DNA of 64,000 bases from Planctomycetota bacterium (GCA_016209685.1 JACQVQ010000013.1:102341-166340); one strand, 5' to 3'; positions 5,805 through 38,346 are shown, counted from the stretch's first letter. Numbers and translations: made by a program. The notes: generated from the sequence alone by a model not told the origin.

Positions 5805-5829
5805 TAGGGGCAATCCGCCTAAGGCAGAC

Positions 5830-5964
5830 GGTTGCCCAAGACAATGGGGCAGGTGCAAGTTGAAAATCCTGAAAGTCCGCCTTTTGTTGGGGGGACGCCG
5901 TGTTCTGGGCGGGACCTGCCCTGAACCAGCACGGTTCAGGGCCTGCCCCTACAATGGACAAAGG
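5830..5964 (+). repeat. 135-bp direct repeat, copy 1
   Basis: Matches 6320-6454 with 2 mismatches (offset 490). ORF-track entries 5737..5961(-) and 6251..6496(-) share the resulting peptide SIVGAGPEPCWFRAGPAQNTAS. Confidence 0.95.
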
Positions 5965-6305: not shown

Positions 6306-6319
6306 CTTACAACCCTTGC

Positions 6320-6454
6320 GGTTGCCCAAGACAATGGGGCGGGTGCAAGTTGAAAATCCTGAAAGTCCGCCTTTTGTTGGGAGGACGCCGTGTTCTGGGC
6401 GGGACCTGCCCTGAACCAGCACGGTTCAGGGCCTGCCCCTACAATGGACAAAGG
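6320..6454 (+). repeat. 135-bp direct repeat, copy 2 (provides 5' UTR and start codon of the rubrerythrin-like gene)
   Basis: See copy 1; the repeat ends ...CCCCTACAATGGACAAAGG, containing ATG 6444. Confidence 0.95.
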
Positions 6455-19480: not shown

Positions 19481-20884
19481 ATGGCTGCAGAAATGAAAGG
19501 ACTTAAGAGCTTCCAGGGAGGGATACATCCCCCCTTTGACGGAAAATCCCTTTCTAAAGATAGAGAGATAGTCCAGTTCCCATTACCAGAGGTAGCCTAT
19601 TTATGCATGAGTCAGCATATCGGGGCACCTGCCAAGGTAGTGGTGGCTAAAGGTGACGTGGTGAAGAAGGGGCAAAAGGTAGGTGAGGCGCCAGGTCTTA
19701 TCTCTGCCAACGTCCATGCCTCAATAGCGGGCAAGGTAACGGACATCACGTTCAAGCCCCACCCCGTCACAGGTGCCAGGACCCAGGTGGTGGTCATCCA
19801 GAGGGAAGGGGAGGACATGTGGGCACCAGGACTTGATGAGCCACAGGACGTGGAGGCCATGACCCCTGATGATATAAGGAATTTAGTCAGGGAGGCGGGG
19901 ATGGTGGGTCTTGGTGGAGCCACCTTTCCCACGCACGTGAAGCTCAGTCCTCCCAAGGATAAGACGGTGGACGCCGTAATCCTCAACGGTGCCGAGTGTG
20001 AACCCTATCTTACCTGCGATTACCGCCTCCTCATGGAAAAGACCAGGGAGGTTATAGAGGGGCTGAGGATAGTCATGAAGTGCCTGGGCTGCAAAAATGG
20101 CTACGTTGGCATAGAGGCCAACAAGATGGATGCCTACGAGAGGGTGAAGGCCGTCGTGGGGCATGACGCCCACATAAAGGTAGAACTCCTGGAGGTAAAG
20201 TACCCACAGGGTGCCGAGCATCAACTCGTAAAGGCCATCCTGGGCAGGGAGTTCAAGCCCACACAGCTACCCATAGAGGCAGGGGCGGTGGTTCATAACG
20301 TCAGCACTACCTACGCCATCTATGAGGCGGTGAAGCATAGGAGGCCCCTCGTCCAGAGGGTAATCTCCATAACCGGGGACGGTGTGGAAAGGCCCGCTAA
20401 CTTGTTGGTGAGGGTAGGTTCTCCCATTGAGCCGCTCCTTAAGGCCTCCGGCCTCAAGGCAGAGGCCAATAAGGTCGTCTACGGCGGGCCTATGATGGGC
20501 ATTGCCCAACCCGCCGTTACCGACGCCGTTACCATCAAAGGTACGGGTGGAATACTGGTAATGAGCAGTGCAGGGGAGTGGCAGTCCCACGCCTGCATCC
20601 GGTGCGGCAAGTGCATTGAGGCCTGTCCTTATGGATTGAACCCAAGTTATCTGAGTATCCTCTGTGAATCCGAGCACTTCCAGCAGGCCATGGAGTTCAA
20701 CCTCATGGAGTGTAAGGAGTGCGGATGCTGTACCTACGTCTGCACCTCCCGCAGGCCGATTGTGCATCTAATAAAGACTGCCAAGTATGAGCTTGGGAGG
20801 CAGAAGGCCAGGGCCCAGGAGGCCCAGAAGGCCAAAGAGGCACAAAAGGTCCAGGCGGCGGCCGCTCCTGCTACGACCAAATAA
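19481..20884 (+). CDS. rnfC: Rnf complex subunit C
   Basis: 467-aa ORF; GLGGATFPTHVK nucleotide-binding region; two 4Fe-4S motifs CIRCGKCIEACP and CKECGCCTYVCTS. Confidence 0.9.
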   Translation: MAAEMKGLKSFQGGIHPPFDGKSLSKDREIVQFPLPEVAYLCMSQHIGAPAKVVVAKGDVVKKGQKVGEAPGLISANVHASIAGKVTDITFKPHPVTGARTQVVVIQREGEDMWAPGLDEPQDVEAMTPDDIRNLVREAGMVGLGGATFPTHVKLSPPKDKTVDAVILNGAECEPYLTCDYRLLMEKTREVIEGLRIVMKCLGCKNGYVGIEANKMDAYERVKAVVGHDAHIKVELLEVKYPQGAEHQLVKAILGREFKPTQLPIEAGAVVHNVSTTYAIYEAVKHRRPLVQRVISITGDGVERPANLLVRVGSPIEPLLKASGLKAEANKVVYGGPMMGIAQPAVTDAVTIKGTGGILVMSSAGEWQSHACIRCGKCIEACPYGLNPSYLSILCESEHFQQAMEFNLMECKECGCCTYVCTSRRPIVHLIKTAKYELGRQKARAQEAQKAKEAQKVQAAAAPATTK

Positions 20885-20980
20885 CGGAGGCATTTCTTTA
20901 GTAAGCCACACACAGGGATAACGGGTTTCCCTGTTTACTGTCTACTGTTTGCTGTCTACTGTCTAAAGGAGAGCGCTTTT

Positions 20981-22018
20981 ATGTCCAATGCCCAAGAAAA
21001 GGTGGTGACACCCGCCTCAGGCGGACTTCCGACAAGGGAACTGCTGGTTACCACCTCTCCTCATATTAGGGGTCCGGAGGATATACCCAGGGTGATGTGG
21101 ACGGTAGTGGGTGCCCTGTTACCTGCGGGCCTGGTGGGTGTGTATTTTTTTGGTTATTACGCCCTCTTCATCGTCATCTTGAGCGTGCTGGCCGCCGTCT
21201 TGACGGAGGCAGTCATACAAAAATATCTCCTCGGCCAGCCGGTTTCCGTTAAGGACGGCAGCGCCGTAATCACGGGGCTTCTCCTGGCCTATATACTACC
21301 CCCCGGTGTACCCTGGTACATACCAGTGGTAGGGGCCATATTTGCTATTGGCATAGTAAAACATGCCTTCGGCGGACTGGGTAACAACATCTGGAACCCA
21401 GCCCTGGCAGCCAGGGCCTTCCTCCAGGTGGCCTATCCTGCCCCCATCAACTCCGACTGGCGAATCATAAAAGAGAGCGGAGGCATCCTGTCAAATATTA
21501 CCGGTATGGATGCCATCACACAGGCCAGCCCCTTACTCAAGGAATTCGGCGGCAAGACCTATAGCTACATGGACCTCTTGATAGGAAGGGTCCCAGGCTG
21601 TATCGGGGAGACCTCTGCCATCGCCCTGATGCTGGGTGGGGCATATCTAATCTACAGGGGGTACGTAGATTGGCGGGTGCCTGTGGGATACATAGGGACC
21701 GTCTTTGTCCTGGCAAAGCTCCTGCCTGCGCGGATAGAGGCCCCCTGGGCCAATGACCCAATCTACCACGTGCTGGCAGGGGGGCTTATGCTGGGGGCCT
21801 TCTTCATGGCCACGGACATGGTCACCTCCCCCCTGACCAGGAGGGGACTCCTCATCTTCGGTATAGGCTGTGGGGTGCTAACTACCCTGATAAGATTTTA
21901 TGCGGCCTATCCTGAGGGGGTTTGTTACTCCATCCTCCTCATGAACACGGCTACTCCCCTCATTGACAGATTCACTCAACCAACACTACTGGGGTCCGCC
22001 TCAGGCGGAAAGAAATAA
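20981..22018 (+). CDS. rnfD: Rnf complex subunit D (NqrB/RnfD family)
   Basis: 345-aa polytopic membrane ORF directly after rnfC; SPHIRGPE...MWTVVGALLPA N-terminus typical of RnfD. The last 8 codons (GSASGGKK) overlap a CCGCC hairpin repeat. Confidence 0.85.
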   Translation: MSNAQEKVVTPASGGLPTRELLVTTSPHIRGPEDIPRVMWTVVGALLPAGLVGVYFFGYYALFIVILSVLAAVLTEAVIQKYLLGQPVSVKDGSAVITGLLLAYILPPGVPWYIPVVGAIFAIGIVKHAFGGLGNNIWNPALAARAFLQVAYPAPINSDWRIIKESGGILSNITGMDAITQASPLLKEFGGKTYSYMDLLIGRVPGCIGETSAIALMLGGAYLIYRGYVDWRVPVGYIGTVFVLAKLLPARIEAPWANDPIYHVLAGGLMLGAFFMATDMVTSPLTRRGLLIFGIGCGVLTTLIRFYAAYPEGVCYSILLMNTATPLIDRFTQPTLLGSASGGKK

Positions 22019-22019
22019 A

Positions 22020-22649
22020 ATGGGAAAGAAACTACGGTACACGGTAGTACTCGGTATCATCTCCATAATTACGGCGGTAGGCGTGGGGGTCACCTATGTA
22101 ACCACGAAGGAGAAGATAAGACAGAAAGAAGAGGCCAGGCGGATGGAGGCCCTACTAACCGTCCTGCCAGGGCTGGAGGGACAGCCCCAGGAGGTTACGC
22201 CCCCCGGGGCAGCCCCCGAGGAGAAGGTCTACAAGGGGTTAGACAAAGACCAGAAGGTCATAGGTTATGCCGCCCTTGGCCAGGCCCAGGGCTACTCCAG
22301 CACCATAAAGACTATGGTGGGCCTGTCTCCTGACATGCAAAAAGTCCTGGCCATCAAGGTCCTGGCCCAGGGAGAGACCCCTGGCCTTGGCACCAGGGTC
22401 ATGGAGATAGCGACCACCAAGACCCTCTGGAAACTCCTTATGGGCGGCGGGGCTTCCCCTGCCGCAGCCGAACCATTGACCCCCTGGTTCCAGGAACAGT
22501 TCAAAGACAAGGCCCTCAATCAGCTAACGGTGGTCAGGGAGTCCGACCCCACGAAGATTCAGGCCATCACCGGGGCTACTATCAGTACCAAGGCAGTGGT
22601 GGCCTCCGTGGAAAATGGGGTGAAGAAGATAAAGGCTACAGTAAAGTAG
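22020..22649 (+). CDS. rnfG: Rnf complex subunit G
   Basis: ORF track starts 21963 inside rnfD; ATG 22020 lies 1 nt after the rnfD TAA. N-terminal TM helix and FMN-attachment-type motif ITGATISTKAV. Confidence 0.85.
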   Translation: MGKKLRYTVVLGIISIITAVGVGVTYVTTKEKIRQKEEARRMEALLTVLPGLEGQPQEVTPPGAAPEEKVYKGLDKDQKVIGYAALGQAQGYSSTIKTMVGLSPDMQKVLAIKVLAQGETPGLGTRVMEIATTKTLWKLLMGGGASPAAAEPLTPWFQEQFKDKALNQLTVVRESDPTKIQAITGATISTKAVVASVENGVKKIKATVK

Positions 22650-22673
22650 GGGCATGTTGCAACGTGCCCCTAC
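22646..22673. repeat. REP-like palindrome GTAGGGGCATGTTGCAACGTGCCCCTAC
   Basis: The rnfG TAG stop (22647-22649) lies within the GTAG end. Confidence 0.85.
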
Positions 22674-22720
22674 CAGGGGTTAGCAGTCTTTTTCCCTACC
22701 CCCTACTCCCTATCCCCTGG

Positions 22721-22780
22721 TTCTGCAACTGTTCCAGGAAGGCCACACGGGTGCGTATCCGGCTATGGGCGATAGGGGTG
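22721..22780 (-). pseudogene. remnant A of the 3' end of the dehydratase-like gene (23720..25687)
   Basis: 60 nt align to 23733-23795 with a 3-nt deletion and 5 mismatches. Minus-strand translation FTPIAHSRIRTRVAFLEQLQN vs the real C-terminus YTPSAHGQIRTRVEAFLEQLQNVNR. Confidence 0.75.
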
Positions 22781-22853
22781 AAGGGAGGTGGTTTGTTTTA
22801 CCCATTTTGTGCCGTTAAACAGGGGGCATTGAAAATTGAAAGGAGTAGACGCC

Positions 22854-23096
22854 ATGCCAATGGTGAAGTGTAAGCGGTGCGGTGGAAGTGGGGTTTCCAC
22901 CGACCAAAATCCAACAAGACCAGGTGTTTACAATTGGTGTAAAGGATGCGAGGGGGATGGTGCAGTTAATGTGCCCGACCCTAATAATTCGTGTAAAAGA
23001 TGCGGTGGAAGTGGGGTTTCCACTGACCAAAATCCAACAAGACCAGGTGTTTACAATTGGTGTGCTGGATGTGCTGGGTCGGGGTATGCAAGGTAA
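22854..23096 (+). CDS. 80-aa cysteine-rich protein with four DnaJ-type CxxCxGxG zinc-finger motifs (tandem duplication)
   Basis: SD AAGGAG + ATG 22854 (ORF track 22836). Motifs CKRCGGSG, CKGCEGDG, CKRCGGSG, CAGCAGSG. Internal 72-nt units 22869-22940 and 22992-23063 differ at 4 positions. Confidence 0.6.
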   Translation: MPMVKCKRCGGSGVSTDQNPTRPGVYNWCKGCEGDGAVNVPDPNNSCKRCGGSGVSTDQNPTRPGVYNWCAGCAGSGYAR

Positions 23097-23167
23097 TGGG
23101 GTGCTAATCGGCCGGTGGCGTTGATGTTAGGATGCTGGTTTGGGTCTTTAATGCCTGCCTTCTGTTA

Positions 23168-23203
23168 TTCTGCAACTGTTCCAGAAATGCCTCTACACGG
23201 GTG
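23168..23203 (-). pseudogene. remnant B of the 3' end of the dehydratase-like gene
   Basis: 36 nt match 23733-23768 at 34/36 (encodes VEAFLEQLQN in the host-gene frame); overlaps the stop of the NTase gene. Confidence 0.65.
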
Positions 23204-23579
23204 GCAAGAGACTCCAAGACGGGCTGGAATAAACCCAGACGACTTCACGCCTAATCCTTTCGTAAGATTGTCCCTGCCGTGCAAGGCCCTGCCATTCCTC
23301 CTCTGTGTAGACCAGTACGTCTGCCGGGACAGGTAACTCGGTTATATCCCATTCCGAGGCCCGCCGCATGAAGGGGTGTTGTGAGTCCTTAACAATTATG
23401 ATTAGGTCAAGGTCGCTTCCTACGCCCCAGTCCCCCCGGGCATAGGAGCCAAAATAACCGATACTTAGTACATCTTTTCGGGTCTTCACGGCCTTGTCAA
23501 CCCACTGGCCCACTGCCCGTTTGACCGTCTGTGCATCAGGCCATCTGAGAACGGACGAACTCAATAATCTCACGGGCAT
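23193..23579 (-). CDS. MNT-type nucleotidyltransferase-domain protein (orphan, no HEPN partner seen)
   Basis: 128-aa ORF; GYFGSYARGDWGVGSDLDLIIIV is the GS-x10-DxD pol-beta NTase motif. Confidence 0.75.
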   Translation of the reverse strand: MPVRLLSSSVLRWPDAQTVKRAVGQWVDKAVKTRKDVLSIGYFGSYARGDWGVGSDLDLIIIVKDSQHPFMRRASEWDITELPVPADVLVYTEEEWQGLARQGQSYERIRREVVWVYSSPSWSLLPPV

Positions 23580-23640
23580 AATTTTTGGACTTTAGTCCGC
23601 CTGAGGCGGATGGACTAAAATCTTTCAGTCTATTGTCTAT

Positions 23641-23668
23641 AGTAGGGGCGTATTGCGATACGCCCCTA
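23641..23668. repeat. REP-like palindrome GTAGGGGCGTATTGCGATACGCCCCTAC
   Basis: Differs from the 8849 copy by one loop base. Confidence 0.85.
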
Positions 23669-23719
23669 CTACTGTCTACTGTTTGCTGTCTACTGTCTTA
23701 CGCAGGCTAAAGCCTGCGG

Positions 23720-25687
23720 CTACCTGTTTACGTTCTGCAACTGTTCCAGGAAGGCCTCTACACGGGTGCGTATCTGGCCGTGGGCGCTGGGGGTGTAATC
23801 ACAGGTGAGGTGTAGCAGGGGGATGTTCCTCTTCTCAAATTCCTTCTTAAAGAGGGGGTAGTCGTACAGAGAATGGTCACAGAACTTCAGGGTATGGTAG
23901 ATGGCCCCATGTATGGAGCGTTTTTCTATTATGGACAGGATTCTGTTTATCCTGTCAAAGACGTTGGCCATGCGTGAGCAGGGTGACTTCCCAAGGTACC
24001 GGCCTGCCAGGGCCAAAAAGGGGTCGTCCTGTACCTCTACCAGGGCTTCGTAGAATCTGGAACCACTGCAGAGGTCGTCCGCCACTACCCTGGCCCCCGC
24101 CTCTTCTATAGTCTTTATTATCTCTTCGTTCTCCAGGATGCCCCCCCATATAAGGAGTCTTGGCAGTGCCTTGGTCTCTTTTGTGCAAGGGCGACCCACC
24201 GGGTCGCCCCTACCATCTTTCGTCAGACCCGCCGGGTCGTCACTACAATCTTTCATCAGGAGGGTAATATAATCGTGGAACTTCTCAGGGACGGCATTGA
24301 TTCCCCTCTTCATGAGGGAGAAGACCTCGTATCCCGAGTGGTTCAGGTATCCATTCCATTGTTTCTGTAAGAAAAGTTTGGCCTTCCCCCTGACCTTATT
24401 ATAGAGTGCGATGCTCTTGTGGAGCTCTTCCTGGGTAATCTTGCGGTTGCAGTATTTCTCTAACCTCTCCTTGAAGTTCTTTATCAGGAGGCTGAAGTAG
24501 TTTATGGCGGCCGCATCGTTAGTCTTGGGCAGGTCCAGGATGTAATTGAACTTCTTGTCTCCGTCCAGACGCTTCCAGGCGTCGTACAGCCTGCGCATCC
24601 CGTCACAGGAGTTCATGAACACTATCCCTTCCAGCCCTTCCAGACTGCCCGAGAGTTTCTCCTCCATAGCGGCCTTTATGTAAGGGCAGATATTGGTGCA
24701 GAGGTGCTCTTCGGCCAGTCCTTCGGCCTTCTTTGCCCCGGTTATCCTGACGGGATGGAACCCCGCCGCCCGGATGACCTCTATCGGGGTATAGGTGCAC
24801 AGGTAACCCATCCTGGGGAGATTGCTCTCCTCCAAGGAGGCGTCGGCCTTAATCTCTTCCACGGGCCTCTCTTCAGCGGTGGATTTCACCTGGATTGAGG
24901 GGCTGTTTCTTTTGCCGGCACTTTCCAGCCCAATAAGGGCGGCCCCTACTGCCCCGACAATCTGAGGGTCCGGGGACATCCTGAGCCTCGTACTCAACAG
25001 CCTTTCCAGTTCCTTGACCATGCCCACGTTCTTGGCCACCCCTCCGCTCATTACCACCTGTTCCTCTACGCCCACACGGCGGGTCTGGGCGGCAATCCTC
25101 TTGGCTATTGCTATGTGGAGGGCGCGGCAGATGTCCTCCCTCTTGTGGTCTGCCCCTATGAGGGAGACCACCTCTGACTCTGCGAAGACCGTGCAGAGAC
25201 TGCTTATGGAGAGCTTATCGCCTCCCTGGAGAGAGAGTGCCCCCATCTCCTCCAGCTCTATCTCAAGGGTCCTGGCCATCACCTCCAGGAACCGACCGGT
25301 GCCGGCGGCGCACTTGTCGTTCATTACAAAATCCATAACGTTGCCACTCTGGTCAACCTTTATGACCTTGCTGTCCTGACCGCCTATGTCTATTACGGTC
25401 CTTACCTTGGGGAAGAAGTAATGTGCCCCTTTGGCATGACAGGTTATCTCGGTTACTACCTCCTGGGCGAAGGGTACCCTGATGCGGCCGTAACCAGTGG
25501 CCACCACGTAGTCAATGTCCTTCTCTGAAAGCCTGGCGACCTCCAGTACCTTCTTAAAGGCCTTGTCAGCGGCCTTCTTACTACTGGCCCCCGTAGCTAT
25601 TACCTCAGAGGCCACAATCTCCCTCTTATCGTTCAGCAACACTACGTCTGTTGATAAAGACCCAATATCAATGCCAAGACTCAACAT
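23720..25687 (-). CDS. fusion of BcrAD/BadFG/HgdC-type activase ATPase with HgdB/BcrC-like dehydratase-component domain
   Basis: 655-aa ORF; N-terminal GIDIGSLSTD and NDKCAAGTGRFLE (activase hallmarks); C-terminal half resembles 2-hydroxyacyl-CoA dehydratase D-component. Contains a REP-like insert at 24188-24213. Confidence 0.8.
   Translation of the reverse strand: MLSLGIDIGSLSTDVVLLNDKREIVASEVIATGASSKKAADKAFKKVLEVARLSEKDIDYVVATGYGRIRVPFAQEVVTEITCHAKGAHYFFPKVRTVIDIGGQDSKVIKVDQSGNVMDFVMNDKCAAGTGRFLEVMARTLEIELEEMGALSLQGGDKLSISSLCTVFAESEVVSLIGADHKREDICRALHIAIAKRIAAQTRRVGVEEQVVMSGGVAKNVGMVKELERLLSTRLRMSPDPQIVGAVGAALIGLESAGKRNSPSIQVKSTAEERPVEEIKADASLEESNLPRMGYLCTYTPIEVIRAAGFHPVRITGAKKAEGLAEEHLCTNICPYIKAAMEEKLSGSLEGLEGIVFMNSCDGMRRLYDAWKRLDGDKKFNYILDLPKTNDAAAINYFSLLIKNFKERLEKYCNRKITQEELHKSIALYNKVRGKAKLFLQKQWNGYLNHSGYEVFSLMKRGINAVPEKFHDYITLLMKDCSDDPAGLTKDGRGDPVGRPCTKETKALPRLLIWGGILENEEIIKTIEEAGARVVADDLCSGSRFYEALVEVQDDPFLALAGRYLGKSPCSRMANVFDRINRILSIIEKRSIHGAIYHTLKFCDHSLYDYPLFKKEFEKRNIPLLHLTCDYTPSAHGQIRTRVEAFLEQLQNVNR
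24188..24213. repeat. REP-like palindrome AGGGCGACCCACCGGGTCGCCCCTAC inside the dehydratase-like CDS
   Basis: Read in-frame on the - strand as ...DGRGDPVGRPC... Confidence 0.7.
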
Positions 25688-25841
25688 AAATCACTCCTAT
25701 AAAATGAAAATCTGTCCATCCAAGCCTACCCCGCACCGTTCTGGTGCAGGGCCTGCCCTGAGTGAGGCGGCAGTAAGATAGCAAACTCCTACTGGACGGT
25801 CAAGCCTAAAATCAGGGACCAGGGGCTAGGGGGGTAGGGAA

Positions 25842-25909
25842 GAATTGCATTGTAAATTGGAAATTGCAAATTTTAAAATTTAAAATTTCCAATTTACATT
25901 TTACAATTC
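25842..25909. repeat. AT-rich 'AAATTG' word palindrome, copy 1
   Basis: GAATTGCATTGTAAATTGGAAATTGCAAATTTTAAAATTTAAAATTTCCAATTTACATTTTACAATTC; related to 60368-60427. Confidence 0.85.
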
Positions 25910-26105
25910 TGTCTGCCCTAAGCGGTGAGTAGGGGGCAGGGAAAGAATTCAGAATCCAGAATTCAGAATACTAACTACTGAAGACTTTGGACTATAGACT
26001 TTTGCAGGGTTCTCGTTGTATAATCCCTAGAAAGTTTTAATCCGAGGATAATAACACCACCCAGCGTATCGGAGGTAAAGGGCCATTATAACTATCTCAA
26101 AAGAG

Positions 26106-26510
26106 TTGAAGACCAAAGGGGATGGCGACTGCCACAATATCACTCCAGAGGTAGAGCAGGCGGTAAGGGATTCGGGGGTGAGTTCTGGACTGGTTAATAT
26201 CTTTATTCCCGGCTCTACGGCCGCACTGACCACCCTGGAATTTGAAGAAGGGGTAATAAAGGACCTTGCCGGGGCGATGGAAAGGCTTATCCCAAAAAAC
26301 ATACCCTACCAGCACGATGAACGCTGGCAGGATAGGAACGGGTACTCCCACGTAAGGGCGGCCCTCATGGGCCCCTCTCTTACTGTCCCCTTTGTAAATA
26401 GCGAGTTACAGCTTGGGCGCTGGCAGCAGATAGTCCTTATAGATTTTGACAACCGCAGCCGGAACAGGCAGTATCTTATTAATATCCTGGGGGGAGATAG
26501 GCATTCGTAG
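26106..26510 (+). CDS. YjbQ/UPF0047-family protein
   Basis: 134-aa ORF (TTG). ...STAALTTLEFEEGV...YSHVRAALMGPSLTVPF...LQLGRWQQIVLIDFDNR matches the YjbQ pattern. GGAGGT at 26071-26076 suggests an ATT/ATA start near 26085. Confidence 0.7.
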   Translation: MKTKGDGDCHNITPEVEQAVRDSGVSSGLVNIFIPGSTAALTTLEFEEGVIKDLAGAMERLIPKNIPYQHDERWQDRNGYSHVRAALMGPSLTVPFVNSELQLGRWQQIVLIDFDNRSRNRQYLINILGGDRHS

Positions 26511-26591
26511 GGACAGACCTTCAGGTCTGTCCCATCTCGGACAGGGCTAAAGTTGAAAATCCGCCATATTTTGGGCGGGCCCTGTCCCTAC
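26507..26591. repeat. composite REP-like + GTTGAAAATCC-core repeat between convergent yjbQ and immA-like genes
   Basis: GTAGGGACAGACCTTCAGGTCTGTCCC...GGACAGGGCTAAAGTTGAAAATCCGCCATATTTTGGGCGGGCCCTGTCCCTAC. The yjbQ TAG (26508-26510) and the immA-like stop (CTA 26588-26590) sit in the GTAG/CTAC ends. Confidence 0.85.
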
Positions 26592-27307
26592 AATTCAGTC
26601 CGCAATATCACCCTCTTCCAGTCCTCCCTGAAGATTGGCCAGCCCACAACGCTTATCTCTTCGTCCTTCAAGGATACCTCTGCCCCGCTTGTGGTTACCT
26701 CTTTCAGGCACTGACTTTCCAGTAGGTAGGAGGGTCTTACCGTAAAGGGGTAAGAACTCTTCCTCTTGTAGAGCCTCCCATTGTCAAAGATGGTTACTAT
26801 CATAGGTCTGAATTCCAGCATTCGGAAGGCTATAAGCTCGTGGCTGGCCGTGGAGTAGGTCTTTTTTAGCCTCAGGAGGTCAAAGTCTGAGACCTCAGCA
26901 TCCCTTTTGAACCACTCTCCTGGCAGGAGGAGGTTGATGGCCATGAGATTACTGGCCTCCTCCAGGTGGGCCTCCTCTACCCTCCCCTTTAGGGACACCT
27001 CTCCTATCTCATGGGCAATGGTGAACTGCTTTCTCTCTGATTTATTGGGATTCTTACTGCCTACTATTATGGTTCCCAGGTCCCATCTAGTCCGGCTGTA
27101 ACCCCGGGTCTTTAAGTGGGGGTCTATCTGGACGGTTAGCCCCAGCTTCCTGGCTATCAGGTAGGCATCCACAGGGGGGGCATGGATATCCATCCTCTCC
27201 AGTAGCGCCCGGGCCTCTTGTTCTGCCAGGGCCGCTATGTCGGGAACCATCCTGCCGCTCTCCTGCCATTTATAGGGGATGTCCCCGCCACCCGATGGTT
27301 GAAGCAC
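26588..27307 (-). CDS. ImmA/IrrE-like (COG2856) domain protein with degenerate metal motif
   Basis: 239-aa ORF translationally coupled to the upstream XRE gene; FTIAHEIGEVSL occupies the HExxH position but reads HEIGE. Confidence 0.6.
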   Translation of the reverse strand: MLQPSGGGDIPYKWQESGRMVPDIAALAEQEARALLERMDIHAPPVDAYLIARKLGLTVQIDPHLKTRGYSRTRWDLGTIIVGSKNPNKSERKQFTIAHEIGEVSLKGRVEEAHLEEASNLMAINLLLPGEWFKRDAEVSDFDLLRLKKTYSTASHELIAFRMLEFRPMIVTIFDNGRLYKRKSSYPFTVRPSYLLESQCLKEVTTSGAEVSLKDEEISVVGWPIFREDWKRVILRTEL

Positions 27308-27855
27308 TATTGACCCTTTTGCTCTTCTTTATAAAGGGCCTCTAAAAGGGTTAACAGGAGTTTCCGGTTTGGTCCAAGGAGTGTTTGTTTGCACCTTTCC
27401 AGTGCCTCGTTCTCTTCCAGGTGACGGTCTATCCAGTAAGCTGGGTCCACCGGCACACCTCCGTAACCCCTGATTGTGGAAAGCTCTTCCACGTCTTTCT
27501 GGGTGAGGTCCTGGAGTTTCTCAGGCTGGGCCTCAAAGTGTCTTCTAAAGTTTTCAGGAAGGATGGACAGGTCCAGGGGCTCACCGGCGGCACGTACGAC
27601 CTTTTTCGGAGGCCCTGGGGCAATACGGTCAAGGGGACTCGGAGGGTAACCCCTGTCATCGTCCATGAGGTAGTCAAGGGTGACGCAAAATATCCTGGAC
27701 AGCTTCATGGCGGACTCGCCCTTGGGCTTACGGTTTAACTTCTCAAAGGCCTGATAAGTAGAGATAGGGATATTGGCCCTGCGTGCCGCCTCGGAGCGGT
27801 TCCACCCCTTCTCTGCCCTAAGGTGCATGAGTTTTTCAGATATGGTGATTGCCAT
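27307..27855 (-). CDS. XRE-family helix-turn-helix transcriptional regulator
   Basis: 182-aa ORF; N-terminal HTH_3 pattern LMHLRAEKGWNRSEAARRANIPISTYQAFE. Confidence 0.8.
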   Translation of the reverse strand: MAITISEKLMHLRAEKGWNRSEAARRANIPISTYQAFEKLNRKPKGESAMKLSRIFCVTLDYLMDDDRGYPPSPLDRIAPGPPKKVVRAAGEPLDLSILPENFRRHFEAQPEKLQDLTQKDVEELSTIRGYGGVPVDPAYWIDRHLEENEALERCKQTLLGPNRKLLLTLLEALYKEEQKGQ

Positions 27856-27933
27856 TGCTTAACTAGTAAAATATGTTGTGGCAAAAGTCAACAAAAATAT
27901 CCTGTTAAGTTTCTAATCTAACGGTGGTTAGAC

Positions 27934-27962
27934 AGTGGGGCGTATTTCAATACGCCCCTACT
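27934..27962. repeat. REP-like palindrome AGTGGGGCGTATTTCAATACGCCCCTACT
   Basis: Same stem as the 8849/23641 copies, with a degenerate left GTAG. Confidence 0.75.
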
Positions 27963-27967
27963 GACTT

Positions 27968-28669
27968 TTACGTCTTAGCGAAGGTCTTTTCCTTTTTTGA
28001 TGGGAGTCCGCCTAAGACGGATGCCACTTTTGGTACCTTCTCCCAGTCGGCCAGGAAACGTTTGATACCGGCATCCGTCAGGGGGTGTTGTACTAACTTT
28101 TCAAATACCTCAAAGGGGATGGTGGCCACGTCGGCCCCCATCATGGCGGCGTCTCTGACGTGTATCGGGTTGCGTATGCTGGCCACAATGATTTGGGTCT
28201 TGTAACCGTAGTTGTCGTAGATAGTGCGGATTTCCTCTATCAGGGGCATCCCGGCTTGCCCTACGTCGTCCAGCCTCCCGACAAAGGGGCTGACGTAAGT
28301 ACCCCCTGCCTTAGCTACCAATAGGGCCTGGTTGGGGGAGAAACATAGGGTCATATTGGTCTTGATGCCTTCGGAGGAGAGCACCCTTACGGCCTTGAGT
28401 CCATCCTTTACGATGGGCACCTTTACCACCACGTTCTTTGCTATCCTGGAGAGTTCCCTGGCCTCCTTGATAATCTCGTCCGCCTTGAGGCTCACGGCCT
28501 CCACGCTCACCGGCCCCTCCACTATGGAGCATATCTCCTCCACGCACTCCCGCCAGGGCCTGCCGGTCTTGGATACGAGCGTGGGGTTGGTGGTAACACC
28601 GTCCAGGATGCCCAGACTGTGGGCTTCTCTAATCTCCTTCACGTCCGCTGTATCTATAAAAAATTTCAT
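27968..28669 (-). CDS. tal: transaldolase / fructose-6-phosphate aldolase (short type)
   Basis: 233-aa [18 protein letters not shown]...GVTTNPTL...VVKVP. The last ~20 codons run through a CCGCC hairpin repeat (C-terminal extension). Confidence 0.9.
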
Positions 28670-28786
28670 CTTCCGTCCTCCCTAATCTTTTGCAAGTGTA
28701 GCGTGCGACCTCGTGTCGCACGATTCTTAACTGCCCATTTAGAACGTGTGAGACAAGCTCACACGCTACTTCCGTCCTCCCTAATC
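28670..28786. repeat. REPIN-like doublet (28698-28769) bracketed by an 18-bp direct duplication containing the tal SD
   Basis: CTTCCGTCCTCCCTAATC at 28670-28687 and 28769-28786. Between them: GTAGCGTGCGAC-CTC-GTGTCGCACG...CGTGTGAG-ACAAG-CTCACACGCTAC. Confidence 0.85.
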
Positions 28787-29786
28787 ATTTACAGAGTTTA
28801 AAGACCAGTGTCTCCAGGAGGAGCCTGGTGTCCGTGCTATTGGTCTTACTATGTATATCCGTTTCCAACAGAAATTGGTAGTCCCTTTCTAATTCCACCT
28901 CCGAAAAGAGTTGTGTCTGATTCACTAACTCTTCCAGGAAACGAGAGTAACGGATGTTCAACTCCCGGGCTACGGTCTCTCTGTCTTTACCGCTGGCCAA
29001 GATACGCTTGGCCTGCAGGAGCCTTTTCATCTGCCAGGCCATGGGGGGAATGACCTTTTGGGCCTCCTCCCCGGACTTCATGAGTGCCATCAACTGGTGG
29101 AGTACCTTCAGGGCAAGGGCTGTATCCCTCCTGGCCACTGCCCCGGTGAAATCAAAGACCTTCTGCTGACGGTCGTAGCCCACGAGTTCTTCCACGTCGC
29201 TTACTTCTATCCTCGTGCGGCTGCCCAGGTAGAGGGCAAGCTTCTCTATATGGCCGTCCAGCAACAAGAGATTATCACCCACATTTTCTTGTAAAATGCG
29301 GGAGGCGTCAAGGCTAATCTGCTTACCATAGTGCCGCACCCTCTCTAGAATCCAGGGCGTGAGTTCATTCCCCTTTAATCTCCTGCAATCAACACTGCCT
29401 CCTTTTTTCTTTATCTTATCGTATGCCCCACCCTTGGTGTCCACGTCTTTACAGACCAGTACCAGGACGCAATCCGTTGGCGGAGAAGATATATACCGCT
29501 CCCACACCCCACTGCTTTCCTTAAACAATCCATCGGCGTTATATACTAGTACTAATTTTCTACTGCCGCTTGCAAAGAGGGAGGGCGTCCTCACCTCCTC
29601 CATCACTGTAGACAGAGAGGTCATTTCACCATCCGTCTCCACCAGGCCGGTGTCATCACCCTCCAGTGTGCGGGATTTGATAAGGGAAATGGCCTCCTTT
29701 ACGAAGAACCCCTCCTCCCCGTGTATAAGGTACAGGGACAGGAGTTTCTCCCTCTGGAAATGGTTTTTAAAGTGCAGAAAGTCCAT
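28785..29786 (-). CDS. holA: DNA polymerase III delta subunit
   Basis: 333-aa ORF; ...LYLIHGEEGFF... N-terminus and the leuS-proximal position typical of holA. Confidence 0.7.
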   Translation of the reverse strand: MDFLHFKNHFQREKLLSLYLIHGEEGFFVKEAISLIKSRTLEGDDTGLVETDGEMTSLSTVMEEVRTPSLFASGSRKLVLVYNADGLFKESSGVWERYISSPPTDCVLVLVCKDVDTKGGAYDKIKKKGGSVDCRRLKGNELTPWILERVRHYGKQISLDASRILQENVGDNLLLLDGHIEKLALYLGSRTRIEVSDVEELVGYDRQQKVFDFTGAVARRDTALALKVLHQLMALMKSGEEAQKVIPPMAWQMKRLLQAKRILASGKDRETVARELNIRYSRFLEELVNQTQLFSEVELERDYQFLLETDIHSKTNSTDTRLLLETLVFKLCK

Positions 29787-29800
29787 GTCTTATTTGTATA

Positions 29801-29922
29801 TTGAATCCTCTGAAAAACCCGACGGACCTGTCCCGCCATAGGCGGATTTTCAACATTCTGAGGGAGCGAAGCGACCGAAGAATCTCTTAAAAGCCAGATT
29901 CTTCGCTTCGCTCAGAATGACA
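29801..29922. mobile_element. MITE-like element B (right end missing)
   Basis: Left end TTGAATCCTCTGAAAAACCC, internal CATTCTGAGGGAGCGAAGCGACCGAAGAATC / GATTCTTCGCTTCGCTCAGAATGAC. No right TIR before the leuS-end remnant. Confidence 0.6.
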
Positions 29923-29936
29923 GGTAGCAGGTTCAT

Positions 29937-30057
29937 CTACCTCACCACAATATTCATCAACTTCTTCGGCACCAGGATTATATTCACCACCTTCTTCCCG
30001 TCCAGGAATTTCTTTACGCCCTCTTCTTCCAGCACCTTGGCCTTGAGTTTTTCTTCC
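29937..30057 (-). pseudogene. diverged duplicate of the last ~40 codons of leuS
   Basis: Aligns to 30570-30691. Translation EKLKAKVLEEEGVKKFLDGKKVVNIILVPKKLMNIVVR* (own TAG) vs real ...EEVKARALEDENVKKFLDGKKVVNIILVPRKLVNIVVR*; 48 central nt are identical. Confidence 0.8.
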
Positions 30058-30078
30058 TTTAGACTTCTTTATTTATAA

Positions 30079-30231
30079 TTTGAGACCTCTGAAAAACCCA
30101 GCTCATTGTCCCGCCTGAGGCAGAAAGAATCTCTAATCCGAAATGTCACCCTGAGCGAAGCGAAGGGGCTAGATTCTTCGCTTCGCTCAGAATGACACAT
30201 TGCGATGCCGTGGCTTTTTCAGAAGTCTCTA
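30079..30231. mobile_element. MITE-like element C (complete)
   Basis: TIRs TTTGAGACCTCTGAAAAACC (left) and GGCTTTTTCAGAAGTCTCT (right, 17/19 complementary), internal GTCACCCTGAGCGAAGCGAAGGGG / GATTCTTCGCTTCGCTCAGAATGAC hairpin. Confidence 0.75.
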
Positions 30232-30240
30232 TCTCTTCTT

Positions 30241-30558
30241 TTAGACATAGATTAGATTCTGCTCAATATCTTCAGCGATGTGCTCATACCTTGGGTTTTT
30301 GTAACTACTCTTTAAACAATCAAAAGTTGCCACATCTACCTTTACTTTATTTAGTACCTCCTCCAGATAGTATGCAAGGTCTACAAAATCGAGCCCTAAA
30401 GGTTTTTTGAGTTCTACGAGGATGTCTACATCGCTTCCCTTTCGTTGCAAGCCTTTTGCGAAAGAATCAAAAATGGCAATCTTTTCTACCCCGTATCTTT
30501 CTCTTAAATACGGAAGCTCTCTTCTTAGGATATCAACAATTTTCTCTTTTGTAAGCAT
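30241..30558 (-). CDS. MNT-type nucleotidyltransferase (orphan, no HEPN partner seen)
   Basis: 105-aa ORF starting 11 nt after the leuS stop, with SD AAGGA..GAGG; FDSFAKGLQRKGSDVDILV is the NTase GS...DxD motif. Confidence 0.8.
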   Translation of the reverse strand: MLTKEKIVDILRRELPYLRERYGVEKIAIFDSFAKGLQRKGSDVDILVELKKPLGLDFVDLAYYLEEVLNKVKVDVATFDCLKSSYKNPRYEHIAEDIEQNLIYV

Positions 30559-30569
30559 CCTCAGTCCTT

Positions 30570-33113
30570 TTACCTCACCACAATATTTACCAGCTTCCTG
30601 GGTACCAGGATTATATTCACCACCTTCTTCCCGTCCAGGAATTTCTTTACGTTCTCGTCCTCTAATGCCCTGGCCTTAACCTCCTCCTCCTGGAGGTCTA
30701 CCGGGACCATCAGGTGTCCCCTGACCTTGCCGTTTACCTGGACTACCAACTCTATTTCTCCTACCTTAATGGCCTCAGGGTCGTAGGTGGGACGTGGTTG
30801 TTCAAAGAGACTGGGCTTGTTACCTAAGACCTGCCAGAGTTCCTCGCAGATGTGTGGCACAAAGGGGGCCAGGAGTAACGTAATAGACTCCAGGGAGTGG
30901 CGGAGGACCTGTAGAGAGAGGATGTTCTCTGTCAGACTTGCCTCACTCACTGACGCTCTGGGTCTAAATTTCTCCACCTGGTTAAAGAGTTCCATTACGG
31001 AAGCAATGGCGGTGTTAAAATGCCAGGAGGTCTCTATGTCCTCAGAGACCTTTTTTATGGTAAGGTGGGTGGCCCTGTAAAGATGCCTGGCCTCCTCAGG
31101 GAGTTGAGAGGTTTTAGTCTTTGTTCCTGGCAGGTTACTGAGTTTTGCTGCCTCCTCTGCTACCTTTTGCCAGAGGCGGTTGAGGAAACGGGAACTGCCG
31201 ACTACTGCCCTGTCGCTCCACTCGGCGTCCTTCTCTGGAGGCCCGATGAAGAGGATATAAAGCCTGAGGGTATCTGCCCCGTACTTTTTGATAATATCCT
31301 CCGGGCTTACCACATTGCCCCTGGACTTGGACATCTTGGCGCCGTCCTTGATTATCATCCCCTGGGTGAAGAGGTTCTTAATGGGCTCCTGGAATTTCAC
31401 GCAGCCCATATCGCAAAGCACCTTTGTTATGAACCTGCAATAGAGGAGGTGCAGTATGGCATGTTCCACTCCACCTATATATTGGTCCACCGGGAGCCAT
31501 CGGTTCACAAGCTCGCTATCAAAGGGTCTATTAGAATCCCTGGGCGATAGATACCTGAGATAGTACCACCCCGAGTCCACAAAGGTGTCCATAGTATCCA
31601 CCTCCCTCCGTGCCTCCCCCTGACATCTTGGACAAGGCGTGCGGAAGAACTCCTCCACCTCTGCCAGTGGACTCTGACTGGAGTGTCTCAGTTTCTTAAC
31701 AGGGGGCAGGAGTACAGGCAGGGCCTCTTCGGGTACTGGGACTATGCCACAGGCGTTGCAATATATTATGGGTATGGGCGCCCCCCAGTACCTCTGGCGG
31801 GATATGAGCCAATCCCTCAGGCGGTAATTTGTGGAGGGGACGCCCAGTTTTTTCTCTTTTAGATATTCAATTATCTTTGGGATTGCCTCCCGATTAGGTA
31901 GACCGCTAAATGGCCCGGAGTCTACCTGGGTGCCATCTCCAGTATAGGCCTCCTTCATAGCCTCGGGTCTCAGTGTCTCCCCTTCGGGCTGAATCACCAC
32001 CCTGACGGGTAGGTTGTAGGCCCTGGCGAACTCAAAGTCCCTCTGGTCATGGGCAGGTACGGCCATCACCGCCCCTGTGCCGTATTCCATCAGGGCATAG
32101 TTGGCTATCCAGAGGGGTACCTCCTCGTTAGTTACAGGGTTTATGACATGGAGACCCATGAAGACCCCCTCCTTGGGTGCGCCTGCGGCGGAGCGCTGTA
32201 TGAGGTTCTCGTTCCTGGCCTTTTCTACGAAGGAGAGTATATCGTCCCTCCTGGGATTATTCTCCACCAGTAACTTAATGATAGGATGCTCAGGGGCGAG
32301 GACCATAAAGGTAACGCCGAAGAGGGTATCTGGTCTGGTGGTGAAGCAGGTCAGCGTAGGGGCAGGTTTCAAACCTGCCCCCTCAGATGGGAGTGGCCCT
32401 GCCACTCTAAAATCTATCCTGGCCCCTTCACTCTTACCAATCCAGTTCCTCTGCATCACCTTCACCCTCTCTGGCCATCCCTTCAGGAGTTCCAGGTCGT
32501 CCAGTAGCCTCTGGGCATAATCGGTAATCTTGAAGAACCACTGTTCTAAATCCTTTTGCTTGACGGGGGTATCACACCGCTCGCAGAGGCCGTCTATTAC
32601 CTGTTCATTGGCCAGGACGGTAGAACAGGAGGGGCACCAGTTTACCGCCGCCTTTTTCTTATAGGCCAGCCCTCTCTCATAGAGTTGGAGGAATATCCAC
32701 TGGGTCCACTTGTAATACTCAGGGTCGCAGGCGGCCACCTCCCGGTCCCAGTCGTAACCTGTACCCCAGTGGAGGAGCTGGTTCTTCATGGCCGCTATGT
32801 TTCTATAGGTAAGTTCGGCAGGGTGACAACCCTCCTTTATGGCGGCATTCTCTGCCGGCAGCCCAAAGGCGTCCCACCCCATCGGGGTAAGGACGTTGTA
32901 GCCCTTCATGAGCTTATAGCGTACCACCACGTCCCCGAGGATATAGTTCCTTGCGTGCCCCACGTGGAGTGTCCCCGAAGGATAAGGGAACATCACCAGG
33001 CAGTAGAACTTCTCTTTGGAAGAGTCCTCCTCTATTTTAAAGAGCCCCCGGCGGTTCCAGTACTCCTGCCATTTAGGCTCAATCTCCCAGAACTTGTACT
33101 TATTATCTTCCAA
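30570..33113 (-). CDS. leuS: leucyl-tRNA synthetase
   Basis: 847-aa ORF; HIGH-type motif LHVGHARNY, KMSKS motif GAKMSKSRGN, TTRPDT editing-domain motif. REP-like 29-nt element in-frame at 32356-32384. Confidence 0.97.
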   Translation of the reverse strand: MEDNKYKFWEIEPKWQEYWNRRGLFKIEEDSSKEKFYCLVMFPYPSGTLHVGHARNYILGDVVVRYKLMKGYNVLTPMGWDAFGLPAENAAIKEGCHPAELTYRNIAAMKNQLLHWGTGYDWDREVAACDPEYYKWTQWIFLQLYERGLAYKKKAAVNWCPSCSTVLANEQVIDGLCERCDTPVKQKDLEQWFFKITDYAQRLLDDLELLKGWPERVKVMQRNWIGKSEGARIDFRVAGPLPSEGAGLKPAPTLTCFTTRPDTLFGVTFMVLAPEHPIIKLLVENNPRRDDILSFVEKARNENLIQRSAAGAPKEGVFMGLHVINPVTNEEVPLWIANYALMEYGTGAVMAVPAHDQRDFEFARAYNLPVRVVIQPEGETLRPEAMKEAYTGDGTQVDSGPFSGLPNREAIPKIIEYLKEKKLGVPSTNYRLRDWLISRQRYWGAPIPIIYCNACGIVPVPEEALPVLLPPVKKLRHSSQSPLAEVEEFFRTPCPRCQGEARREVDTMDTFVDSGWYYLRYLSPRDSNRPFDSELVNRWLPVDQYIGGVEHAILHLLYCRFITKVLCDMGCVKFQEPIKNLFTQGMIIKDGAKMSKSRGNVVSPEDIIKKYGADTLRLYILFIGPPEKDAEWSDRAVVGSSRFLNRLWQKVAEEAAKLSNLPGTKTKTSQLPEEARHLYRATHLTIKKVSEDIETSWHFNTAIASVMELFNQVEKFRPRASVSEASLTENILSLQVLRHSLESITLLLAPFVPHICEELWQVLGNKPSLFEQPRPTYDPEAIKVGEIELVVQVNGKVRGHLMVPVDLQEEEVKARALEDENVKKFLDGKKVVNIILVPRKLVNIVVR
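32356..32384. repeat. REP-like element inside leuS
   Basis: GTAGGGGCAGGTTTCAAACCTGCCCCCTC, read on the - strand as ...EGAGLKPAPT... just N-terminal of the conserved TTRPDT motif. Confidence 0.8.
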
Positions 33114-38171: not shown

Positions 38172-38346
38172 TTGAGACCTCTGAAAAACTTTACTTACAT
38201 GTCATTCTGAGGGAGCTAAGCGACCGAAGAATCTGACACAAAGTGTCACCCTGAGCGAAGCGAAGGGTCTAGTTTCTTAGCCATGAGATTCTTCGCTTCG
38301 CTCAGAATGACAAGTTGTGCGGTGTAGACTTTTGCAGAGGTCTCAA
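38172..38346. mobile_element. MITE-like element D (complete, two internal hairpin modules)
   Basis: TIRs TTGAGACCTCTGAAAAAC / GACTTTTGCAGAGGTCTCAA. Sits between the znuB stop (38168-38170) and thiE. Confidence 0.8.

Follow-up and report, generated by a model that had tools for sequence, protein, structure and literature searches.

Toxin-antitoxin cassettes between duplicated gene ends in a Brocadiales planctomycete

The dehydratase gene end and its downstream copies

In a 64-kb stretch of Planctomycetota DNA (GCA_016209685.1 JACQVQ010000013.1:102341-166340), all 64,000 nucleotides of which we call the window, the end of a dehydratase-like gene is followed by partial copies of itself that alternate with small genes. 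The host lineage is a Brocadiales planctomycete represented by metagenome-assembled genomes (MAGs) only. The gene in question, referred to here as the target or dehydratase gene, encodes a fusion of a BcrAD/BadFG-type activase ATPase with a protein resembling the D-component of 2-hydroxyacyl-CoA dehydratases. It is intact, its product ends in FLEQLQNVNR, and orthologues at 62-98% identity are found in Brocadiales and Scalindua MAGs. Coordinates of this site and of a second one in the window, at leuS, are collected in Table 1.

An earlier note on this DNA had proposed that the 3' end of the dehydratase gene recurs twice downstream, and alignment confirms three copies, namely the functional end (copy R) and two remnants, B and A. 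The direct repeats that bracket the units at this site are made up of the terminal 36-80 nt of the target gene. The close match of B was reproduced exactly, as was the 3-nt deletion in A, where the homology is probably longer than had been stated: A is 87.5% identical to the real end over 64 columns (22720-22780, including the 3-nt gap), and an alignment by eye carries the homology on to ~22800-22808 with a further 6-nt gap. Read in gene orientation, R, B and A all end in ...TTGCAGAA and diverge sharply just beyond ...GCAGAA. In R the next 13 nt (23720-23732) form a strain-specific tail, CGTAAACAGGTAG, encoding VNR and the stop; B runs into TAACAGAAGG, and A into CCAGGGGATAGGGAGTAG, encoding QGIGSRG and a stop. 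Mismatches among the three copies all lie on the gene-internal (upstream) side of a 17-nt core, TTCTGCAACTGTTCCAG. Exactly three perfect copies of this 17-mer occur in the window, at 22721, 23168 and 23733, all at the dehydratase locus; other matches in the window need 2-3 mismatches, for a chance expectation of 0.14 even with 3 mismatches.

That A and B might simply belong to a dispersed repeat family was considered and rejected. The 17-mer is confined to the dehydratase locus in the window, and matches on other contigs are orthologous and none is viral. A degenerate 26-nt block pattern matched 18 metagenome contigs; 4/18 resembled the window region, and each of these lay at the dehydratase locus, while the remaining contigs gave no BLAST match to that region. 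Among viral contigs there was no match to the dehydratase-block pattern or to the leuS block.

As the earlier note had described, a gene for a 128-aa MNT-type nucleotidyltransferase (NTase) lies between the real end and B, and a gene for an 80-aa DnaJ-type zinc-finger protein lies between B and A; PF01909 and PF00684, respectively, recognize the two proteins. The last ~11 codons of the NTase gene (SPSWSLLPPV and stop) come from the junction and from B, so that its stop codon falls inside the remnant. Homologues of this MntA-type protein are abundant (4191 at E <= 1e-10, in many phyla) and share a conserved N-terminus, MPVRLLSSSV; an exact look-up of the 128-aa sequence found no record. In the contigs L016, L064-L070 and L071, an intact 129-aa HEPN gene (PF05168, 5.1e-34, with the RX4H motif RYPNSH) stands upstream of mntA. 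Its ATG overlaps the target stop-codon region in L016 and L064-L070 (GGATAAATG), where the NTase start in turn overlaps the HEPN end. Because this HEPN gene lies between the target and the NTase gene in relatives, the unit is a HepT/MntA-type toxin-antitoxin (TA) pair, and the NTase at the dehydratase site is its MntA antitoxin. The NTase gene of the earlier note therefore stands, but not as a lone gene: it is better described as a decayed HepT/MntA pair of which 48 nt of the toxin gene are left. Where most of hepT would lie there are instead 136 nt of repeat-derived sequence, with small hairpins, a heptamer array and a GTAGGGGCG...CGCCCCTAC palindrome belonging to a seven-copy family in the window. 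L048, like the window, retains only the last codons of the toxin gene, and the HEPN gene of L002 is frameshifted.

Table 1 Features of the dehydratase-rnfG and leuS sites in the window
Feature	Position	Strand	Basis or description
rnfG (FMN_bind), convergent neighbor bounding the site	21963..22649	+	Pfam; synteny in L001, L016, L048, L064, L071
Palindromic hairpin (22646-22673) and CCCCTAC-type heptamer array, between rnfG and A	22646..22720	.	Repeat families D8, D9, D11
Remnant A, decayed gene-end copy of ~64-80 nt	22721..22800	-	3-nt deletion, probably a 6-nt deletion too, ~5 mismatches
DnaJ-type zinc-finger mini-protein gene, 80 aa (86 aa from 22836)	22854..23096	+	PF00684 (DnaJ_CXXCXGXG) 1e-8
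Spacer after B (TAACAGAAGG...TAAAGACC)	23097..23167	.	Homologous to the post-B sequence in L016, L082; directly behind mntA in L002
Remnant B, 36-nt gene-end copy	23168..23203	-	34/36 (94.4%) vs real end
MntA-type minimal nucleotidyltransferase, 128 aa, full length	23193..23579	-	PF01909 (NTP_transf_2) 1.5e-10; GSYARGDWGVGSDLD motif
hepT (HEPN) toxin remnant, last 15 codons and stop (NYAREIIEFVRSQMA), 48 nt, overlapping the mntA start	23536..23583	-	Comparison with L016, L064
Repeat-derived sequence in place of most of hepT	23584..23719	.	Intact 129-aa HEPN at the same position in L016, L064, L071
Target gene, BcrAD/BadFG-type activase ATPase and 2-hydroxyacyl-CoA dehydratase D-component-like fusion	23720..25687	-	Pfam HGD-D 4.9e-80, BcrAD_BadFG 5.2e-70
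Copy R, functional gene end, duplicated in B and A	23733..23812	-	Alignment of all copies across strains
leuS-end remnant, 122 nt	29937..30058	-	Diverged yet intact C-terminus (KEEKLKAKVLEEEGVKKFLDGKKVVNIILVPKKLMNIVVR), stop codon included
hepT wreck	30059..30248	-	First 19 nt (30230-30248), 148-bp MITE-like element (30082-30229), last 23 nt (30059-30081)
mntA of a different subfamily, 105 aa, 37% GC, starting 11 nt past the leuS stop	30241..30558	-	PF01909 5.9e-12
leuS, second target in the window, 847-aa open reading frame	30570..33113	-	tRNA-synt_1 and Anticodon_1 (Pfam) on identical loci L073, L074

The zinc-finger gene differs from its neighbor in being oriented opposite to the target gene and in the same direction as rnfG. 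An internal tandem duplication of 123 bp (22878-22940 / 23001-23063; 63 nt at 98%) gives its product two CxxCxGxG...CxGCxGxG units. The protein is apparently single-unit in L016 and L082, and the only 4 database homologues, all two-unit, occur in unrelated contexts, each a few nt downstream of another open reading frame. On two contigs of an AT-rich unrelated organism (L079 258-676, L080 198-616) a zinc-finger homologue sits 20 nt behind a fragment encoding the ~45-aa C-terminus of a GDPD protein, and repeats resembling miniature inverted-repeat transposable elements (MITEs) precede that fragment; there, too, a gene-end fragment seems to travel with the small gene.

The other contigs designated Lxxx are sequences from relatives, compared with the window; they are metagenome fragments, and the evidence that they give is of contig level. 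Empty sites, which had been suggested as a check, are present in the closest of them, L001/L061 and L057 (97% nt identity, 85 bp between the two genes), and in L053 (82%, 220 bp). Indeed, L001 is empty and L064 occupied, with target genes that are 98.6% identical. In L064-L067, four independent assemblies, the gene is followed by HEPN, mntA and a 60-nt block that matches the real end at 100%, and then by the A-type CCAGGGGATAGGGAGTAGGGGG flank, hairpin and rnfG allele of the window. L016 and L082 have gene, HEPN, mntA, B, zinc-finger gene and rnfG, with no A. In L048 a gene with the tail QNQGIGS... is followed by repeat-derived sequence of the window type, mntA, a B with the native-type tail NVKGE and stop, and an unrelated 396-aa gene. 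L071 (MntA 83%) carries gene, HEPN, mntA and a B-like remnant with the native-type tail NVKGQ and stop; L002 (76%) carries gene, frameshifted HEPN and mntA, with no B and a trace of the zinc-finger gene 3' end. The two units that had been postulated are separable, since HEPN-MNT occurs alone in L064-L067 and together with B and the zinc-finger gene, in the absence of A, in L016 and L082. Among the relatives none was found to carry A and B without intervening genes, the arrangement that had been named as contrary to an insertion. The ~1 kb between the convergent target gene and rnfG is, in short, a strain-variable landing pad for small cassettes. As judged from L048, it would accept larger cargo of a non-TA kind as well: the 396-aa gene there (1649-2839), for a secreted-looking protein with a weak DUF4185 match, replaces the zinc-finger gene and A between B and rnfG.

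The window, L048, L016 and L082 share one and the same junction between mntA and B, which argues that this junction arose once. The sequence beyond B differs, being that of the zinc-finger side in the window, L016 and L082, and the NVKGE tail with the 396-aa gene in L048. The cassette ends on the right at the same ...TCTCT in both junction types, joined to either 36 nt (J1) or 60-72 nt (J2) of gene end. The A-type tail and flank is also found 3' of the perfect 60-nt remnant in L064-L069, and its first 18 nt follow the real gene end of L048. B could have come pre-embedded in a composite that was inserted once, and the zinc-finger gene may be either an earlier resident or a part of that composite.

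Further signs of activity come from contigs in which the order of units is that of a repeat. L068 and L069 open with the mntA end, the block, CGTGAGGATAAATG and HEPN, followed by mntA, block, A-type flank and rnfG. The same junction of mntA end, block and HEPN recurs in L081, from a third sample, where two successive units differ at 4/192 nt. Such a junction is expected from a circular cassette or a tandem array and, as judged from the contigs, is suggestive of one or the other. Combinations of single-nucleotide differences within the block do not stay with one position but move between R and B from strain to strain; the B block of the window, for instance, equals the R block of L048. Ordering the events by the divergence of A, B and R, which had been suggested as a check, fails and was abandoned, since sequence passes among the copies between strains.

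No sigma-70-like promoter was found in a scan of 22500-23900, which gave two weak terminator-like sites, at chance level. Rfam gave no match in 20000-31500 and the only transfer RNA found was tRNA-Pro at 12290, so that an attachment site in a tRNA, tmRNA or known RNA gene was ruled out.

Small intergenic repeats pervade the region. The heptamer array at 23670-23698 (29 nt, TACTGTC-type) is 100% identical to 20936-20964 in the rnfC-rnfD spacer, 2.7 kb away, which suggests that patches are copied from one intergenic region to another. Tandem arrays of heptamers also stand behind many genes in the window and related loci. Perfect palindromes of 28 nt, GTAGGGGCRYRTTGCRAYRYGCCCCTAC, are present in 7 copies (8849, 12911, 22646, 23642, 27934, 35483 and 39078), all of them intergenic and often just past stops; they could be elements akin to repetitive extragenic palindromes, or terminators.

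The same layout at other gene ends

A small NTase gene beside a duplicated host-gene end had also been described at leuS, and this parallel is real: the 105-aa NTase gene lies between the leuS end and a remnant that is 86% identical to it over 107 nt, with a central ~47 nt identical. The GSxxRG...SDxD motif is present in both NTases of the window (GSYARGDWGVGSDLD in the 128-aa and DSFAKGLQRKGSDVD in the 105-aa protein), and the mntA at leuS, at 37% GC, contrasts with the 52.5% of the window. Behind the gene for the 105-aa MntA, L075 and L077 carry an intact 113-aa HepT-like gene (Pfam) with the motif RDKVIH. Alignment to the intact HepT of L075 defined the wreck in the window, where a 148-bp MITE-like element with terminal inverted repeats (TIRs) GAGACCTCTGAAAAA / TTTTTCAGAAGTCTC interrupts hepT. 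Adjacent intact HEPN/HepT genes are thus a feature of the relatives; in the window 48 nt are left at the dehydratase site and 19 + 23 nt at leuS. Both mntA copies of the window are accordingly eroded members of their family and antitoxin-only relics.

Stacking in series, which had been postulated for the dehydratase site, can be seen directly at leuS in L075. This contig reads leuS-end / DUF2442+DUF4160 / leuS-end / MntA+HepT / leuS-end / holA; with three copies of the gene end and two different TA pairs, it is a direct case of serial stacking. Blocks at leuS are of two types, E-core-P (as in the real end of L077) and K'-core-K. The window has an E-core-P real end and a K'-core-K remnant, unrecombined, and L075 has E-core-K and K'-core-P, a reciprocal exchange in the 47-nt core. 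At both sites, then, units lie between direct repeats of the target 3' end and the gene stays intact (R, B and A at the dehydratase gene; two copies at leuS in the window, three in L075). Mismatches at the dehydratase site all fall to one side of the 17-nt core, and at leuS the positions of exchange differ between the window and L075. Exchange at varying positions within homology fits homologous recombination better than it does a site-specific enzyme acting on a fixed core.

Four gene ends besides that of the dehydratase gene, those of leuS, rnfG, pheT and lpxD, carry a gene-end duplicate, always together with a TA-type pair. On L002, rnfG is followed by DUF4258+DUF2283 with a 129-nt repeat (91.5%). 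On L072, pheT is followed by DUF4258 and an MqsA-like gene with a 74-nt repeat and a ~150-nt pheT end, of which the first 85 nt are ~90% identical and the last 65 nt are a diverged in-frame allele reaching to a conserved stop context; on the same contig lpxD is followed by HEPN+MntA (75% to that of the window), with an lpxD fragment behind the cassette. The remnants at leuS and pheT retain their reading frame and stop codon and therefore look like alleles from another lineage, not like decayed local copies. This recurrence bears out the suggestion that the layout reflects a process rather than an accident.

A short core shared by the leuS and dehydratase junctions, for which a test had been suggested, did not emerge. 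When the blocks of the dehydratase gene, leuS, rnfG, pheT and lpxD were compared by k-mers, only pairwise 8-mers turned up and no motif ran through them all; leuS and the dehydratase gene share nothing beyond the 8-mer TTCCTGGA, and a core common to all targets was accordingly rejected. The loci examined, namely ~15 variants of the dehydratase-rnfG site together with those at leuS, rnfG, pheT and lpxD, held no recombinase or integrase gene or fragment. The absence of a recombinase asserted by the earlier note thus holds at every locus examined, and an enzyme acting in trans could still be encoded elsewhere in the genome.

MITE-like elements with TIRs GAGACYTCTGMAAAA lie at 30082-30229, 29896-29954 and 38286-38344 and in the DUF4258 gene of L072, several of them with a widespread AGATTCTTCGCTTCGCTCAGAATGACA motif. 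In L072 the interrupted DUF4258 toxin gene shows an apparent AGTTT target duplication; together with the insertion in hepT of the window, this indicates that such elements inactivate toxin genes. The same contig holds a 72-nt hairpin-bearing repeat (3255-3326 / 5495-5566, 91.7%; GTCACGTCACGCC...CTGAAAGYCCGCC) on either side of the lpxD and HEPN-MNT segment, which belongs to a dispersed element family separate from the gene-end copies.

Elsewhere in the window, a 239-aa ImmA/IrrE-type Peptidase_M78 gene overlaps a 182-aa HTH_3 gene (26588-27855) between UPF0047/YjbQ and transaldolase genes; L073, L076 and L077 have conserved this pair, and duplicates on its flanks were not observed. At 63285-63695 a 136-aa 23S_rRNA_IVP four-helix-bundle gene of 40% GC overlaps the stop of a pfkB-type kinase gene by ATGA and splits that gene from its apparent partner, an adenylyltransferase gene. 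It may be a further 3'-end cassette; the 35-nt repeat around it (63269-63303 / 63669-63703, 88.6%) consists of low-complexity heptamers and was not counted as an instance. Finally, a 136-nt direct repeat (5829-5964 / 6319-6454, 98.5%) surrounds a 354-bp AT-rich insert poor in open reading frames that starts with a GGGGCAATTCATGAATTGCCCC hairpin. Its second copy reaches precisely to the start codon of the gene that follows and so resembles a duplicate with an insert on the 5' side of a gene; the block includes members of the dispersed repeat family D20.

Candidate mechanisms of accretion

Taken together, these findings support the earlier interpretation that the copies are insertion scars, that the process recurs and that the two units are separable. 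As to how the scars arise, we consider it on balance probable that TA cassettes bearing a copy of the target-gene end accrete by Campbell-type, homology-anchored insertion, driven by host homologous recombination. Host homologous recombination is the likeliest engine because the crossover points vary and neither a recombinase nor a common core was seen. In the travelling unit, a duplicate of the target 3' end, which brings its own stop, would be joined to a ribosome-binding site and a TA pair. Upon entry, the gene-end copy of the cassette would recombine with the chromosomal gene end, either through one crossover of the Campbell type with a circular cassette or, equivalently, through integration anchored by homology, the far end of the incoming DNA being joined within the recipient gene end. 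The incoming end would substitute for the old one, leaving the gene intact, and the displaced native end would stay downstream as a remnant. Repetition of these events at the gene-proximal copy would stack cassettes in series, and the repeats could then allow excision (yielding empty sites), tandem amplification, marker exchange and loss. Toxin genes would erode in time to leave antitoxin-only relics. Expression is probably by read-through, the cassettes being usually close behind the target stop and co-oriented with it, the zinc-finger gene excepted.

Several points weigh against this account. The first joining of a TA pair to a given gene end is left unexplained by it. Remnant-free forms exist, in L002 at the dehydratase gene and in L077 at leuS; duplication is therefore not obligatory, and some copies could arise or vanish by local deletion. 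Some of the blocks are short for recombination of the RecA type: B has 36 nt, and in L048 and L071 the inferred crossover falls within ~11-17 nt. Compared in sliding windows with L001, L016, L048 and L064, the target gene of the window disclosed no clear imported 3' segment. Circles were not seen directly, and the circle or tandem junctions come from short, low-coverage metagenome contigs. The standing of the zinc-finger gene as an independent cassette is less secure, given its opposite orientation and the lack of A in L016 and L082. With a coverage of 64 kb plus fragments, moreover, a recombinase acting in trans may be encoded elsewhere.

A different explanation, which we regard as unlikely, is that the units are decayed site-specific integrative elements resembling cis-mobilizable elements (CIMEs). 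Their attP would have carried the target 3' end, accretion would have been in tandem, and only TA genes with attL and attR would be left, the integrase being supplied in trans. The layout is indeed that of attL, element and attR, the gene bearing a surrogate end and its native end being displaced; A and B differ from R to one side only of an identical 17-nt core, and the right end of the cassette is fixed at ...TCTCT in both junction types. TA genes are, moreover, common cargo of integrative elements. Tandem accretion at gene 3' ends is established for such elements (PMC5704250). Nevertheless, neither integrase nor transfer genes were present in variants of the five sites, and no viral contig carried the blocks, in what were fragments and not whole genomes, so that an ancestry in integrative and conjugative or mobilizable elements or in a prophage finds no sign there. 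The cassettes are all mere TA pairs, mostly 0-45 nt past the target stop, which is improbably tidy for independent decay; the targets share no core, crossover positions at leuS vary by strain, and block lengths run from 36 to ~130 nt. Between the two, we favor host homologous recombination, as the somewhat probable account, over the less probable one of site-specific recombination in trans on CIME-like relics.

Purely local rearrangement is a still more doubtful explanation. The TA pair and the zinc-finger gene would then be old residents, and A and B would have arisen by tandem duplication, slippage or templated patch repair followed by deletions, with no mobility involved. Local copying does occur here, as witnessed by the 123-bp duplication in the zinc-finger gene, the 29-nt array copied 2.7 kb away and the tandem array of L081. 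In L002, which has no B, the divergence of HEPN-MNT is similar to that of the flanking genes (75.6% vs 76%) and compatible with old residence. These observations must be set against the difference in cassette presence between strains as close as L001 and L064 and the occurrence of the same derived cassette, with HEPN deleted and the same repeat-derived sequence in its place, in two downstream contexts, those of the window and L048. Furthermore, the leuS and pheT remnants represent diverged alleles still in frame, the GC content of the mntA at leuS is foreign, and the layout is found at five genes with five TA pairs.

That a dedicated enzyme made the repeats, as attC-like sites of integron-type cassettes or as long target-site duplications of a transposon or insertion sequence, is very improbable: small, promoterless-looking and mostly co-oriented cassettes, hairpin-forming repeats near some of their boundaries and the perfect 60-nt repeats of L064, which look like a fresh target duplication, would suit it, but the repeats copy the coding end of each target with no common attC-like structure and no Rfam or structured family, the hairpins belong to generic intergenic families scattered across the window, the duplications are variable and imperfect (36 to ~130 nt) with surrogate ends of up to ~65 diverged nt (pheT) that misfit staggered cuts, and the loci read hold no intI, no transposase and no TIRs bounding the cassettes.

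Relation to known systems and significance

The closest precedent for serial units at a gene end is the tandem accretion of CIMEs, as in the islands related to ICESt1 and ICESt3 at the fda 3' end of Streptococcus thermophilus (PMC5704250). Both systems share the 3' end of a conserved gene as a site, direct repeats of the gene end, an intact gene, serial units lacking a recombinase, and presence or absence within populations. They differ in that the units described here are only ~0.5-0.8 kb long, contain nothing but a TA pair or a single small gene and lie mostly a few tens of nt past the stop; in that no relative bearing an integrase was seen at the five targets; and in that the repeats, of 36-130 nt, are imperfect, with variable crossovers and no common core.

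TA 'islets' devoid of mobile-genetic-element genes have been proposed to spread through homologous recombination in the core genes beside them, accompanied by erosion of the toxin (Belot et al. 2026, PMC13617665). As with those islets, the islands described here are TA-only, lie between core genes and are patchy in close relatives, and it is the toxin that is lost or pseudogenized first while the antitoxin is left, as with HEPN/HepT in the window, L048 and L002. A double crossover in flanking genes, however, leaves no duplication, whereas the present cassette brings a copy of the gene end, leaves a displaced end behind and permits stacked, tandem and circular forms. The main text of that study does not mention direct repeats and uses 'duplication' once, in an unrelated sense; it states that the integration and spread of chromosomal TA systems 'remains unclear' (PMC13617665).

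HepT/MntA (HEPN-MNT) pairs are type VII TA systems (PMC7641770, PMC2701414). The genes described here share with them the GSxxRGD...SDxD motif of MNT, an RX4H HEPN gene that adjoins and overlaps it in relatives, and membership in a highly mobile and abundant family (4191 homologues). They are unlike them in that both window copies are antitoxin-only relics, and the literature on the family concerns biochemistry and not chromosomal insertion of this kind. Integron cassettes offer another likeness, being small, mostly promoterless, co-oriented, arrayed and often made up of TA genes, with a circular intermediate plausible; here, unlike there, attC, attI/intI and a common site are absent, and the 'site' is a copy of the targeted host gene end.

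As regards the recombination itself, homology-facilitated illegitimate recombination, reportedly described by de Vries and Wackernagel in 2002, resembles the proposed insertion in that one homologous anchor is enough, just as a Campbell-type crossover of a circle duplicates the homology on either side of the insert. Single-crossover insertion of this type is the way in which suicide plasmids integrate; both processes are familiar chiefly from constructs made in the laboratory and from work on transformation. To our knowledge, neither has been described as a natural, recurrent route by which TA cassettes are stacked behind housekeeping genes. In a full-text search, where subscription journals were sparsely represented, no account of TA cassettes flanked by gene-end duplicates came to light.

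It is tempting to speculate further that TA pairs in these planctomycetes constitute a class of mobile cassettes without a recombinase, a proposition that we put forward only tentatively. Their sole 'attachment site' would be a portable host-gene 3' end with a replacement stop; they would integrate by host homologous recombination, pass through transient circles or tandem arrays, be expressed by read-through and accrete in series, as a homology-guided counterpart of integron cassettes.

Islets made up solely of TA genes, with no genes of mobile elements, are common, and the usual explanation is that the vehicle that brought them has been lost; the locus described here offers a concrete and testable alternative. 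Because the cassette would bring its own homology arm, in the form of a surrogate gene end, an essential target would be kept intact, and the displaced gene end would persist as a datable scar. The series of strains captures most stages of such a life cycle in natural populations, from the empty site through perfect 60-nt repeats, a tandem array and stacked cassettes to the erosion of toxin genes by MITE insertion or deletion. Its signature, a gene-end duplicate beside a pair of small open reading frames, can be searched for genome-wide and in other phyla.

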